Shown here: piece by piece, positions 7,581 to 12,376 of the stretch
Layout: the number at the start of each line of letters is the position of its first letter
Numbering within the stretch: position 1 is the first letter of the stretch
Origin: a virus
Lineage: Duplodnaviria; Caudoviricetes
Length of the DNA stretch: 64,000 bases
Virus record (IMG/VR): IMGVR_UViG_3300032030_000030
Coordinates: 1 to 64,000 of that record
Strand: one strand, 5' to 3'
The notes under the pieces: generated by a model
Database searches by the model: none
Told to the model about the DNA's origin: nothing
What the model saw: only the letters and a program-made list of their open reading frames with translations
Position numbers and translations under genes: made by a program

Positions 7581-8297
7581 ATGGCACACGCAACAAGAAG
7601 ACCAATCTTATTTCAGTGTAACAAGTTGCCAAACGGCGGCTTCAAGACTCTTTTGACCTCTGCGTCAACACTGTCCGAACTCAGAAGGGACATCATCCAG
7701 AACACCCCGTTGACAAACACGGAGTTGACGAAGTTCATGTTCGTCCTCAATGGCGAGCAGTTGACAGAAGGCAGCGTCATTCCATTGTTCAACTCTTGTG
7801 CAGGCGTAACTAACCCCTCAGACCCCAAGGTTCAAGTTCTCATCAATAAGTTCAGAACTGACCCGACAGCAGAAGAGTTCCTTGCCATCTCTATGGCAGA
7901 GACTGCGAAGAACACGGCGTCTGGTAGCAGTATTGCTGAATCCTGCAAGTTCTTGGAAGAGAACGGAATGGTCGATGCTTTCAAGGAAGAGTATGGCGTT
8001 CAGCCAGAACTCGCCAGTGCTAAGGTTCTCGACGCCTACGTTTCCAAAATCATCAGTGGAAAGGTCAAAAAGAGTTCTACTGCCACAGCAGTAACAAAAG
8101 CTCCGACAGACCAGGTTGAACAACTCAAAGCTGAGAACAATCGCTTGAAGCAGAGAATTGCCAATCTTGAGGGCTACATCGCAGGATTCAAGGCAGGCAA
8201 CAACGACGACGACGATGATGACAACGACTGGGAAGACGACCCAACTCCGTCGGACGCTGAAGAGATTCAGGTTGACATGAGCAAACTCAGACGTTAG
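7581..8297 (+). CDS. putative ubiquitin-like (beta-grasp) precursor protein
   Basis: N-terminal pattern TSASTLSELRRDI...FMFVLNGEQLTEGSVIP resembles a beta-grasp fold; domain ends ...KNTASG (G115); adjacent to JAB and E1 genes. ORF is solid, fold is inferred. Confidence 0.55.
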   Translation: MAHATRRPILFQCNKLPNGGFKTLLTSASTLSELRRDIIQNTPLTNTELTKFMFVLNGEQLTEGSVIPLFNSCAGVTNPSDPKVQVLINKFRTDPTAEEFLAISMAETAKNTASGSSIAESCKFLEENGMVDAFKEEYGVQPELASAKVLDAYVSKIISGKVKKSSTATAVTKAPTDQVEQLKAENNRLKQRIANLEGYIAGFKAGNNDDDDDDNDWEDDPTPSDAEEIQVDMSKLRR

Positions 8298-8298
8298 T

Positions 8299-8327
8299 AA
8301 CACAACACAACACAACACAACACAACA
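8299..8327 (+). repeat. (AACAC)n pentanucleotide tandem repeat, ~5.8 copies
   Basis: Directly visible after the stop codon. Confidence 0.95.
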
Positions 8328-8330
8328 TTA

Positions 8331-8361
8331 GGAAGCCGCTCTATCAGGGCGGCATCCTTTT
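8331..8361 (+). terminator. intrinsic terminator
   Basis: GGAAGCCGCTCT-ATC-AGGGCGGCATCC then TTTT. Confidence 0.7.
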
Positions 8362-8377
8362 AAATCGCCCAAAAAAA

Positions 8378-9742
8378 ATGACAAATGAAGAAATGGAGTC
8401 ATACACTCGTGCAAAGGCTTTGAGGCTGATGATGTATTTTGCAGCCTATCCTGTAAGAAAGTGTGTTGACGTATTTAAAAAATTCTTCGGGGCAAGGGAA
8501 GTTGATTCGACTATCTTTTATTCCAACTGGAAAGAATATATGCTATATGTATTTTGTCGCAATACTCGCACACTTTCCTCTTGGTTTGATGGAGGTTCTT
8601 ATGATGACACTGTTGATATGTCGCTTAGCAACATATTAGATTCTGTCCGAATAACTGCACCATCAGACCAAGAGAAAGTATATGAGACATTCTTGCGTAT
8701 ACGCGAGAAAGACAAAAATATGGCAAGATACTTTGTCAAATGGGTATCAATATTGTGTGTACGATATGACTCTGACCATTATAGTTCTGAAATTGAAAGA
8801 ACAGGTAGCACTCCGTCATTTCGTGAGCCACTCATTTACGTTCATATACCGAAAGCGACGGTAACTTTGAACGAAAATGACTTACTCAAACACGATATCT
8901 ACGATATGTTCTTTTCCGTGTCTTGTACATATGGCATTCTTGGAGACAAGCGAACGTCTTTGCATCATAATCAGACTTCAATCAGGGGTGCAAGAAGTAC
9001 GTTTACTGCTGAAGAGGTGTCGTATTTGTACGTTCACAGCCATCGTCCTGACATGAACTCTGAGCATCCGCTGGCTTTCGACACACAATGTACTGGTGGT
9101 TTGGGAACTCCATTAAACCAACTTGTATACTCGATAAAGGAATATATGCGAGACCGTAATGTCCATGAGTTATCAAAGGCTTTGACAGAATTGTTTTGCA
9201 TCAATCTTAAGACATATGTTGGAGTGGAGTCGAATACAGGCGGTGCGTACAAACACATAGAACGTCTCGGAGCCTCATCATTGAATCCTGTTTATAGGCA
9301 ATGCATAAAAGAAACATATTCTGCCGACCAAAGATTCTTAGACAAAATGCTTGAGATGAACAGCAAGTATCATTTTGTAAAATTCGTAGCATCTAAAACT
9401 CGAATTACGTACGGAATGGCATTTACTGACATTGCTTTTGCATTATCAGATTTGGCATATGTAACTCAAAAAGAGTTGAAGGCTGTCAATTCAAACTGGT
9501 ATATGAAAGCGGCACTGGCTACAGATGGCAGAATTGTGCATATTGGCGACGGTGGGTCTTCTATACCAAGCTATATGTTAGAATCAATGGCATCAATTAT
9601 CATCAACGGCAAGAAATATCGTTTCAAAGAACATGAAGCGACAACCGACCGTCCCCGAATGAGAGTATTGAAGCAGCCTTATTTTGAGTCTCTCTTCATA
9701 CAATTCATATCTTACGTAAACAAAAAGTTACAAGAAAAATGA
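8378..9742 (+). CDS. putative E2-like (UBC-fold) protein
   Basis: YVHSH(220-222)...QCTG (C238) resembles HPN/HPH...CLG of E2 enzymes; gene context. Confidence 0.5.
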   Translation: MTNEEMESYTRAKALRLMMYFAAYPVRKCVDVFKKFFGAREVDSTIFYSNWKEYMLYVFCRNTRTLSSWFDGGSYDDTVDMSLSNILDSVRITAPSDQEKVYETFLRIREKDKNMARYFVKWVSILCVRYDSDHYSSEIERTGSTPSFREPLIYVHIPKATVTLNENDLLKHDIYDMFFSVSCTYGILGDKRTSLHHNQTSIRGARSTFTAEEVSYLYVHSHRPDMNSEHPLAFDTQCTGGLGTPLNQLVYSIKEYMRDRNVHELSKALTELFCINLKTYVGVESNTGGAYKHIERLGASSLNPVYRQCIKETYSADQRFLDKMLEMNSKYHFVKFVASKTRITYGMAFTDIAFALSDLAYVTQKELKAVNSNWYMKAALATDGRIVHIGDGGSSIPSYMLESMASIIINGKKYRFKEHEATTDRPRMRVLKQPYFESLFIQFISYVNKKLQEK

Positions 9743-10980
9743 AACAAAACAAAATCAAATGCATCTTAACTCCGCTTTTGATGGCAAAAGTGCAGTATAT
9801 GTGCAACCTCCGTCCAAGCAATGAATGGAGTGGCAACATATACTACACCTTCGAGAAGAACGAAGACGGAGAAACGACATTGACTGTCAAGGACCTTGCT
9901 TTGATGGAGTCTTATGGTTCAGAAGCGTTTACGCATTTCAGCAATACTGATGTGTATGCAACTGACTATATTGCTCAGCATCGCAAGTTGTTGGGTTGTT
10001 ACATGGGCTTGTTGCACAGTCATCACAATATGACTTGTGGTCCATCAGGCACAGATGACAACACGATGAATAAGGAAGCAAATGCTCCTGACAACAACAA
10101 CTTCCTGTCAATAATCGTATACAACAACCGCAACATCACACCGTACAGTGTTCGTATCTCTCAGCACGTAAGGCATGAGGTCTTGCCTGGCGATATGTTC
10201 TCCAATGAGTTCGGAACAGAGTACAATGAAGGCAAGTCTCCAAAACTTTGGAAACCAAAGTTGGAGACTGAGATTCTCACAATCGACAAAGACAGCGTTG
10301 TCTATTCAGACCCTTTCTGGACTGATGCAGAAAAGGAAGAGTTTGAGAAGAGGGTGAAAGTGCTTGACGACAAACACGCCGAGCAACAGAAACCAAAGAT
10401 TGTGCCTGCAAACGTAGGGGTTTCCTATCCTTACAGGCGAGATGACGACGACGACATTGATTGGGACACCGAAGACTATTATGGCTATGGTTATCATCAT
10501 GGCGGTTACTACGCTGCAAACGTGAAGAACACGAGCGTCACAATGACAACAAAGGTTACTCCGTTCAAGCGTACATACAATTCCAATATCGACGGTTTGT
10601 TCCCGTCTCAAATTGCAAGGATGTTGTTGAGGCTGTCTTACACAACAGGCCCGTCATTCTATAATGCAAATGAAATGGACGAGGCTCTCAAGAAAATCGA
10701 AGACGATTTCTACTTGATTGCAAACAGCATGAGCGACTACAAAAAAGTGCTGAGAGTTGCGCTTCCTCCGCTTCTTTCATTCATAGCATCATTCTACAAA
10801 GATGGCATAACAGGTTACACATTCAAGAACGACCTCACGATTGCCTTTTCCAGAATAAAGGAAAGTTTGTGGAGCCAGACTGCGGAAGTCAAGACAATTT
10901 GCACAGAACTCATCAAGTCAACAAAGACAATAGTTGACGCAGCCGTTAAAGCGAAGAAAACAAAAAATAAGAAGAAATGA
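9739..10980 (+). CDS. JAB/MPN+ (JAMM) metallopeptidase domain protein
   Basis: E29 (NEWSG) plus H93-S-H95-x7-S103-x2-D106. Confidence 0.85.
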   Translation: MKQNKIKCILTPLLMAKVQYMCNLRPSNEWSGNIYYTFEKNEDGETTLTVKDLALMESYGSEAFTHFSNTDVYATDYIAQHRKLLGCYMGLLHSHHNMTCGPSGTDDNTMNKEANAPDNNNFLSIIVYNNRNITPYSVRISQHVRHEVLPGDMFSNEFGTEYNEGKSPKLWKPKLETEILTIDKDSVVYSDPFWTDAEKEEFEKRVKVLDDKHAEQQKPKIVPANVGVSYPYRRDDDDDIDWDTEDYYGYGYHHGGYYAANVKNTSVTMTTKVTPFKRTYNSNIDGLFPSQIARMLLRLSYTTGPSFYNANEMDEALKKIEDDFYLIANSMSDYKKVLRVALPPLLSFIASFYKDGITGYTFKNDLTIAFSRIKESLWSQTAEVKTICTELIKSTKTIVDAAVKAKKTKNKKK

Positions 10981-11891
10981 ATGCATCAATCATGGCACAA
11001 TTGGCGGCAGAACTCGACCAACAATTGGCTTTGGCTGCTCAGCTTGAGGAAACACCGCAACCTGAACAGCCAGTAGCAGAAGAGCCGCCAGCAGAGCTTG
11101 AACAAGCGATTTCACAAGAATTAGAGGCTGAGCTTCCTGTGCCACCACGCAACTTCTTAGAGTCCGACCAGAGTACAAGGTACAAAGGTGCGGATTGGTA
11201 TGAGAAGATAAGAAGGCAGAAATGCGTAGTTATCGGTGCAGGTGGAATAGGAAGTTGGGTTATCTACTATTTGGCAAGGGCTTCTATCGGTATGATAACA
11301 GCCTACGATGGTGACACTGTTGATACAGTGAACCTCGCAGGTCAGTTGTACCGTACAAAAGACCTTGGTCATTTCAAAGTAGACGCATTGCGAGAAATCG
11401 TCATGGAATATGCACCTACATTGCAAGGTTGTTTCTATTCCGATTTCTACGTCAATGAACCATTGGACAAGATAACTATTACGGCACTTGATTCTATGAG
11501 AGCAAGAAGGCTTGTCTTCGACAACTGGGTTGCACAGACGAAAGGTCTTCCAAAAGAAGAAAAAAGCAAATGGGTGTTCATTGACGGACGTATGTCTGCC
11601 AATTCATACCAGGTGTTTGTCTTTCGTGCTTCCCAAGAGGACAAAATCAAAATGTACGACAAGAAATGTCTTTTTGATGACAGCCTTGCTGATGCTACCG
11701 CTTGTTCTTTCAAGGCTACGTCGCACATAGGAGGCGGCATTGGTTCTTACATCATGTCTCTGGTACAAGAGCATCTGCACTTGGAAGATGATGGAATGTT
11801 TGAAACCAACATAAAGTTCTTCAACGAGTTCGACACCTCGTTTGGTATTACATTAAAACAACAGAAAACATGGCAATATCGAAAGGCCTGA
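10977..11891 (+). CDS. ThiF/E1-family adenylyltransferase
   Basis: VIGAGGIGS, DGDTVDTVNLAGQ, ALDSMRAR, DGRMS, candidate catalytic Cys in ATACSFK. Confidence 0.9.
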   Translation: MNASIMAQLAAELDQQLALAAQLEETPQPEQPVAEEPPAELEQAISQELEAELPVPPRNFLESDQSTRYKGADWYEKIRRQKCVVIGAGGIGSWVIYYLARASIGMITAYDGDTVDTVNLAGQLYRTKDLGHFKVDALREIVMEYAPTLQGCFYSDFYVNEPLDKITITALDSMRARRLVFDNWVAQTKGLPKEEKSKWVFIDGRMSANSYQVFVFRASQEDKIKMYDKKCLFDDSLADATACSFKATSHIGGGIGSYIMSLVQEHLHLEDDGMFETNIKFFNEFDTSFGITLKQQKTWQYRKA

Positions 11892-12376
11892 TACGAAATT
11901 TCATTCAATGTTTCCTTCGGAAGTACATTGAGCCAGGGTCTCCCGATATACCTGTTTCGTGGTTTTCTCGTGATACTGTCAATACTCCGATAGGACAGTT
12001 GTTTGTAAAAGATGTTTCTGTATCGAAGATAAAAGACTTTCTTAATCTTAGGATGAATCAATGCGAATGTCTCAGGGTTCATCACGGAAGCGAGATAGTC
12101 TATATGTCACGCAGTGGAATAGTAACATCTCAATTCAGACCACTTCTTATTGTTGAAGGCGACAGTCAAAACCGAACGTACAAAATATCAAGGCTTGTCT
12201 TCGAGTATGACAAGTCTTGGTTTTGTTTTATAATCAGGAAATATTTGGCAACAGATATTCTTGATTATACTCGCAAAGACGTTCAACTGAGCGGCGGAAT
12301 CACGTCGTTTATGGCAGAAACCAGGCTGGATAAGAACAAGGTAACGAAATTCGTAGCAGAACTAAACGGCAAATGA
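11870..12376 (+). CDS. hypothetical protein
   Basis: ORF overlapping E1 end. Confidence 0.7.
   Translation: MAISKGLIRNFIQCFLRKYIEPGSPDIPVSWFSRDTVNTPIGQLFVKDVSVSKIKDFLNLRMNQCECLRVHHGSEIVYMSRSGIVTSQFRPLLIVEGDSQNRTYKISRLVFEYDKSWFCFIIRKYLATDILDYTRKDVQLSGGITSFMAETRLDKNKVTKFVAELNGK

Follow-up and report, generated by a model that had tools for sequence, protein, structure and literature searches.

Conjugation of proteins by ubiquitin-like (Ubl) modifiers has so far been studied in prokaryotes as a weapon of the host against its phages (Bil, type II CBASS and, probably, Bub). The locus described here raises the question of whether a phage runs such chemistry on its own account. It lies at 7581-11891 in the first 64 kb of a complete 104.7-kb virus genome (IMG/VR record IMGVR_UViG_3300032030_000030); this whole stretch of 64,000 nucleotides is called the window below. 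A first-pass annotation described four consecutive genes (Table 1) as encoding a Ubl, an E2-like conjugating enzyme, a JAB peptidase and an E1 activating enzyme, and proposed that the phage carries its own protein-tagging cascade. Of this proposal the Ubl, JAB and E1 calls and the linkage of the four genes have held, while the identity of the E2 gained no support from any family or Foldseek match. What is new is a predicted phage-encoded set of Ubl, E2-like protein, JAB and E1 with a Ubl-fusion precursor, a small MoeB-like E1 and, in the E2 position, a large new Cys/His protein. Sequences and predicted structures indicate that abundant crAss-like phages probably run a protein-tagging pathway of their own.

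A full-text search of the literature revealed no paper on a Ubl system in the replication modules of crAss-like or other phages. The published crAss maps name only ThiF and MPN, as the first-pass annotation had noted, and the supplementary crAss genome map of Yutin et al. gives names to two of the cassette genes and none to the other two. If the proposal is true, the chemistry known from host defence would also be in the hands of a virus, in a phage group that ranks among the most abundant in animal guts. Two conserved genes which those maps call "uncharacterized" would acquire a function, and a new E2-like family and a natural Ubl-fusion precursor would be added.

Four linked genes in crAss-like phages

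The sequence of the window places its source among the deep-branching crAss-like phages: the polymerase has at most 29% identity to any reference, and the ThiF protein 33-37% identity to those of crAss001 and cr128_1. Since the public runs which hold this phage (several studies) are from sheep, goat and cattle gut, it represents a ruminant-gut crAss-like lineage. The four open reading frames (ORFs) follow one another on the + strand next to the phage DNA primase, within the replication module. The second, third and fourth are joined by 4-nt overlaps (ATGA), and a further ORF overlaps the E1 stop. Sheep metatranscriptome contigs match the cassette at 100% identity; because these matches are to assembled contigs only, they are no evidence of transcription. 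Among the natural variants listed within the cassette from goat and cattle runs, 16 of 22 are synonymous.

The same four genes occur in the same order in all 76 related loci which have at least 4.3 kb upstream of E1, crAss001 and FpV4 among them, a conservation far beyond chance. A check of synteny had been proposed at the first pass, and this is its outcome. Carriers in the Steigviridae are the cultured crAss001 (gp79-gp76), cr128_1, cr85_1, cr111_1, cr106_1 and Kolpuevirus. A ThiF match was found in the cultured phage DAC15, and two deeper contigs of ~100 kb carry the cassette, as does the Flavobacterium phage FpV4 (gp53-gp50), which lies outside the Crassvirales; its gp52 is matched by the profile of the 454-aa family with an E value of 5.8e-43. 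Because cultured phages carry the system (crAss001 and DAC15 on Bacteroides, FpV4 on Flavobacterium) it is directly testable.

A DNA-level search with the cassette gave no match in 50,697 phage records. A scan of 185,579 species genomes, with patterns tuned to the crAss001 group which may miss distant cellular relatives, returned only four contigs from metagenome-assembled genomes, all of them pieces of crAss-like phages that carry the complete cassette, and the family thus looks phage-restricted. These four contigs (L096-L099, 9-94 kb) had been binned in assemblies labelled Bacilli, Acholeplasmatales and Clostridium, a placement which is likely to reflect binning contamination rather than the host.

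Ubl precursor, JAB peptidase and E1-like enzyme

The AlphaFold model of the 238-aa protein has strands at residues 7-12 and 21-26, a helix at 31-41, and strands at 52-56, 59-61 and 101-107, followed by helices. Its N-terminal domain is thus predicted to adopt the beta-grasp fold, and at the end of the fold a conserved glycine is located on a flexible tail (predicted local distance difference test, pLDDT, <50). The residues S114-G115 are invariant in 24 aligned sequences, and K-x-x-x-S-G is present in 78 of 79 Ubl orthologs, the exception being a truncated ORF. A beta-grasp-like pattern over the first ~115 residues, ending in ASG, was what the first-pass annotation had seen here, and the model and the alignment agree with it. 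Since the glycine is internal, its exposure needs cleavage. That the JAB of the same operon cleaves a Ubl-fusion pre-protein has been shown for BubAB/BubCD (PMC11601596), BilC is likewise known to trim BilA (PMC10557695), and Iyer et al. predicted a like cleavage for lambda TAPI/TAPK (PMC1779556).

In some genomes the two parts of the precursor are already separate. An HNH homing-endonuclease gene interrupts the precursor gene two codons past S-G in three IMG/VR loci (L046:3434-4363, L050:3210-4423 and L062:3042-4343), leaving a 91-aa Ubl-domain ORF and a separate partner ORF of 135-160 aa. The layout recurs in the reference genome cr106_1 (L095:1273-2476), where an annotated HNH endonuclease stands between ORFs of 92 aa and 130 aa. 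It follows that each half works as a polypeptide in its own right, as expected of a precursor that is cleaved. Further HNH genes stand directly before the Ubl gene (L012, L018, L022) or directly after it (L034, L047). Given the HNH genes in and around the Ubl gene, the S-G boundary region is a hotspot for homing elements.

The partner domain of the window protein matched no family in a Pfam search. In one lineage (L058:3500-4438; 312-aa forms in L063 and L069) the partner region holds a ribosomal protein L7/L12 C-terminal domain, a domain that binds translation factors, which in L058 matches Pfam Ribosomal_L12 with an E value of 3.8e-11 (43.6 bits against a cut-off of 25.9). A conserved acidic motif closes the partner domain; it reads S-P-Y-S-D-D-E-I-D-x-M-F in the crAss001 group and S-D-A-E-E-I-Q-V-D-M in the window (8230-8297). 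This end resembles the acidic partner-binding tails of single-strand-binding proteins.

A partner domain which is conserved, has an acidic C-terminal motif and possesses its own ORF in the split versions might be the purpose of the cleavage. The JAB would then free the helical, coiled-coil and acidic C-terminal protein as a factor of the replication module by regulated proteolysis, the Ubl serving as a removable chaperone or degron, and lambda TAPI/TAPK offers a precedent for Ubl and JAB operating without E1 or E2 (PMC1779556). We consider this highly unlikely: it provides no role for the invariant E1, for its cysteine or for the Cys/His protein, which are never lost, and although the split versions need no cleavage to free the partner, they too have kept JAB, E1 and the S-G motif.

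The 413-aa product of the third gene scores 21.4 bits with Pfam Prok-JAB (E value of 2.3e-4), below the gathering cut-off of 25, and matches the PADLOC JAB model over residues 2-141 (E value of 4.7e-7). The JAMM motif is complete, and E29, H93, H95, S103 and D106, the residues listed at the first pass, are invariant in 17 representatives. By its sequence we regard the protein as a divergent member of the JAB family, and the JAB call as well supported. Its C-terminal part of ~260 aa has no family match.

The E1 call is likewise well supported by sequence. Pfam ThiF matches the 304-aa protein with 80.4 bits against a cut-off of 28.1, and the PADLOC E1-E2 models match its Rossmann part (E value of 5.5e-12). 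The Rossmann domain has the GxGGxG loop (G87-G92), an arginine finger and a magnesium-binding aspartate. Invariant in 20 non-redundant orthologs are GxGGxG, R68, D111, D113, N119, Q123, K134, D172, R177 and C243. The last of these is the only invariant one among four cysteines (83, 152, 231 and 243), in keeping with the lone candidate cysteine noted at the first pass, and it has the same context in crAss001, FpV4 and the deep-branching contigs L085 and L086. When the protein was aligned by MAFFT with an annotated MoeB and two PRTRC ThiF proteins, C243 shared a column with the cysteine of MoeB T-P-S-C-A-E-A-G, which lies after the MoeB CxxC, and with that of PRTRC P-S-C-S-M; the CxxC zinc motif of MoeB is absent from the phage E1. 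From its place after CxxC, and from the known MoeB and ThiF enzymes, we take the MoeB stretch to be probably the crossover loop. Sequence matches to solved structures span E1 residues 74-150 only and do not place C243. The protein begins with an acidic low-complexity stretch of ~60 residues (10977-11156) rich in Pro, Gln and Glu; the N-terminal extensions of the orthologs vary greatly in length, up to ~150 aa in crAss001.

The closest sequence relatives of this E1 are ThiF and MoeB, which act with ThiS and MoaD, carriers with the same beta-grasp fold. An alternative reading is a sulfur-carrier pathway, in which the Ubl, once adenylated by the E1, would become a thiocarboxylate and supply the sulfur for modifying nucleotides, tRNA or DNA, in the manner of the ThiS/MoaD, TtuB or CysO systems with JAB trimming. 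ThiS and MoaD have free G-G ends, need sulfur donors and acceptor enzymes, and act without an E2-like partner, whereas the phage carrier ends in S-G inside a larger protein. The first-pass annotation had noted that no sulfur-cofactor genes are nearby; indeed the complete 104.7-kb genome has no rhodanese, cysteine desulfurase (Aminotran_5) or PP-loop thiolase, nor does the E1 have a rhodanese domain. Donor and acceptor enzymes, lacking in the phage genome, may be supplied by the host. The strictly linked fourth protein, with its Cys/His residues and UBC-like match list (see below), has no role in known sulfur relays. We judge a sulfur carrier to be improbable.

The Cys/His protein in the E2 position and the proposed pathway

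An exhaustive HMMER search produced 100 relatives of the 454-aa protein at E <1e-3, the conserved part being residues ~150-310. In the alignment of 101 sequences (17-27% identity) H220, S221, H222, C238, G240, E284, S285 and G288 are invariant. Of seven cysteines C238 alone is conserved throughout, and HSH...C-x-G is found in 78 of 79 orthologs, the remaining one being a truncated ORF. Conservation of C238 and of the Ubl G115 in homologs had been set beforehand as a test of the proposal, and both residues proved invariant, in the alignments of 101 and 24 sequences, respectively. The remaining motifs reported at the first pass are also present at their residues, the full list being K110-N-T-A-S114-G115 in the Ubl precursor, H220-S-H222 and C238-T-G here, E29/H93/H95/S103/D106 in the JAB, and G87-A-G-G-I-G92 and A-T-A-C-S-F-K (C243) in the E1.

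The confident AlphaFold model (pLDDT of 89.3, predicted template modelling score of 0.79) begins with an N-terminal helical domain. Long antiparallel strands (152-164, 167-184 and 203-209) lead into a loop with H-S-H and C238, beyond which lie two helices (245-258 and 267-282) and, at the C-terminal end, an alpha/beta domain. H220-S-H222 and C238 thus fall between strand 203-209 and helix 245-258, and we read the order of elements in the modelled core as that of the ubiquitin-conjugating (UBC) fold. In the VIA match list, UBC-superfamily chains are far commoner than their share of the PDB predicts.

Sequence comparisons gave no such indication. The E2 models in Pfam, NCBIfam and PADLOC, including the curated families UQ_con, Prok-E2_A to E and PRTRC B, did not match the window protein, and Pfam matched none of the 101 family members at E 0.01 or at E 10. 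A PDB profile search yielded no sequence match, and alignment of the family with PRTRC protein B by hhalign was not significant (probability of 0.1%). Foldseek against the PDB with the model returned a best E value of 0.24 and no E2, and in a second look at this list by VIA the coverage was of the C-terminal part only. Searches of the ESM Atlas with the whole protein and with the core alone returned noise, the Atlas's own model being poor. Word-indexed protein searches with the Ubl and 454-aa proteins retrieved close relatives only, and a single-sequence scan of IMG/VR for both found nothing.

Of the original E2 call, then, the H-S-H motif and an invariant C238 in a sheet-helix loop have stood, and an E2 match has been found neither by sequence nor by Foldseek. 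On sequence, the C238 protein constitutes a large new Cys/His family in the E2 position, and a UBC-like core is likely from the model, though not shown. The main alternative is that Ubl processing and activation take place as proposed, with the 454-aa protein in a role other than that of an E2: it might be a substrate, an adaptor, or a different enzyme of Cys/His or metal type. In that case transfer of the Ubl would fall to the E1 itself, unless the pathway went no further than a Ubl adduct. We hold this to be unlikely, though appreciably less so than the other alternatives considered. Against it are the VIA enrichment in UBC-superfamily chains, an invariant cysteine in the sheet-helix loop where E2s carry theirs, and the location of the gene at the E2 position of PRTRC cassettes, never parted from E1, JAB and Ubl.

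We therefore lean, with modest confidence, towards a phage-run pathway of ubiquitin-like activation and conjugation. The 238-aa precursor would be cut by the JAB after S114-G115 to give a Ubl of ~115 residues with a C-terminal glycine, and a freed helical partner. The small E1 of ThiF type, which we presume to form homodimers as MoeB does, would adenylate G115 with ATP and take the Ubl onto C243 as a thioester, from which it would pass to C238 of the 454-aa protein acting as an E2-like carrier. As no ligase (E3) is present, the extra N- and C-terminal domains of this carrier would choose the target. The final acceptor of the Ubl would be a lysine in a protein of phage or host while replication is under way, and the JAB may double as the enzyme which takes the Ubl off again. 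Gene order, co-occurrence, predicted folds and residue conservation form the basis of this pathway, from which we infer the chemical steps and the target.

A broader reading would have the Steigviridae, the deeper crAss-like branches and FpV4-like Flavobacterium phages all run Ubl conjugation in replication, by means of a phage-only E2-like family with built-in target-recognition domains. The tagged proteins would be those of the host or of the phage, and the tagging might serve, for instance, to reprogramme the host or weaken its Ubl-based defence. For this we see the balance as even.

Neighbouring features and comparison with known systems

Table 1. Positions in the window of the cassette genes, their principal parts and adjoining features
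Feature	Position	Strand	Basis
Ubl precursor gene, 238 aa (predicted beta-grasp domain, flexible tail, helical domain, coiled coil, acidic tail)	7581..8297	+	ORF, AlphaFold model, positional orthologs in all related loci
Ubiquitin-like beta-grasp domain, residues 1-115, ending K110-x-x-x-S114-G115 (predicted mature C-terminus)	7581..7925	+	Model and invariance
Fusion partner, freed if cut after G115: helical domain, coiled coil (176-206), acidic tail	7926..8297	+	Model; separate ORF in L046, L050, L062 and cr106_1
Terminator-like hairpin, then U-run	8330..8358	+	8-bp stem with 6 GC pairs; folding energy
454-aa Cys/His protein, candidate E2-like transfer enzyme, new sequence family	8378..9742	+	
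H220-S-H222 to C238, candidate active-site loop between last sheet strand and next helix	9035..9091	+	Invariance, secondary structure of model
JAB/JAMM metallopeptidase, N-terminal ~145 aa and C-terminal extension of ~260 aa	9739..10980	+	Prok-JAB, PADLOC JAB, invariant motif
ThiF/MoeB-type E1-like adenylating enzyme, 304 aa, single adenylation domain, acidic low-complexity N-terminus	10977..11891	+	Pfam ThiF, invariant residues
E1 C243 codon, candidate thioester-forming Cys	11703..11705	+	Aligns with Cys of MoeB and PRTRC ThiF
168-aa ORF overlapping E1 stop, possible diverged fifth member (gp75-like)	11870..12376	+	Linked through L085 only

The hairpin between the first two genes has a folding energy of -18.9 kcal/mol (z of -4.77; none of 200 shuffles was as stable); a (CACAA)n run lies just upstream of it, at about 8299-8327. 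By its sequence it may be a partial terminator which sets the Ubl above the levels of the enzymes. Downstream of E1, a gp75-like gene (AXQ62718; crAss001 gp75 is at L001:6738-7550) is present in 78-82 of 83 loci; Pfam recognizes no domain in its products. Neither a single nor an iterated search with the gp75-like profile matched an ORF of the window. The 168-aa ORF there matches only its 187-aa counterpart in L085 (pairwise blastp E value of 5e-7), which the gp75 profile in turn matches at E 9e-9. On these sequence links the window ORF and the gp75-like gene may be a fifth component.

Among the known systems, lambda/T1 TAPI (Ubl) and TAPK (JAB) are also phage-borne, the Ubl having a conserved glycine followed by another domain, with the JAB predicted to cut there (PMC1779556). 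They lack E1 and E2 and belong to the tail module, whereas the present cassette is in the replication module. Type II CBASS has an E1-type adenylation domain with a cysteine relay (Cap2, an E2-E1 fusion) and a JAB (Cap3), as is predicted for the phage. It operates without a Ubl, its substrate being the C-terminus of the CD-NTase, and of Cap2 only the E1 half matches the phage E1, not the E2 half.

Bil consists of BilA (Ubl), BilB (E2), BilC (JAB) and BilD (E1), corresponds to operon class 6d of Iyer et al. 2006, and is an anti-phage defence (PMC10557695). In BilD, a large enzyme with a zinc site, the architecture is IAD-AAD-CYS, while the phage E1 is a single adenylation domain of ~230-300 aa without CxxC. 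BilB has C-E-H-H, with histidine after the cysteine; the phage 454-aa protein, three times larger, has H-S-H before it. The IAD-AAD-CYS E1 and C-E-H-H E2 which define Bil are thus missing from the phage cassette. The setting differs as well, host defence for Bil and the replication module of lytic-type phages for the cassette.

PRTRC cassettes of plasmids and integrative and conjugative elements (ParB, proteins C/B/A and ThiF; class 6b) share with the phage the relative order Ubl, E2, JAB, small ThiF, with the candidate E2-like protein of the phage in the E2 position. Both are located on mobile elements near replication or partition genes, and the aligned cysteine is common to both ThiF proteins. 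On the phage E1 the NCBIfam PRTRC_ThiF model reaches 36.4 bits, where the cut-off is 144.75, and the models for PRTRC A, B and C give no match, so that the cassette is not a PRTRC member by its defining models. The PRTRC Ubl is a free protein of ~70 aa, unlike the phage precursor.

Type I Bub (BubAB, BubCD, BubE; class 6e/DUF6527; PMC11601596) uses Tyr and Ser oxyesters and has no catalytic cysteine. In the phage, by contrast, one cysteine is invariant in the E1 and one in the 454-aa protein, and the genome encodes no DUF6527 protease; by these hallmarks the cassette lies outside Type I Bub. The fusion partner in Bub is the E2 itself, and in the phage a helical and coiled-coil domain. The likeness lies in the form of the carrier: in Bub, as in the phage cassette, the Ubl is the N-terminal part of a fusion pre-protein, which in Bub is cut by its own JAB at a conserved glycine, and a small single-domain E1 is common to both.

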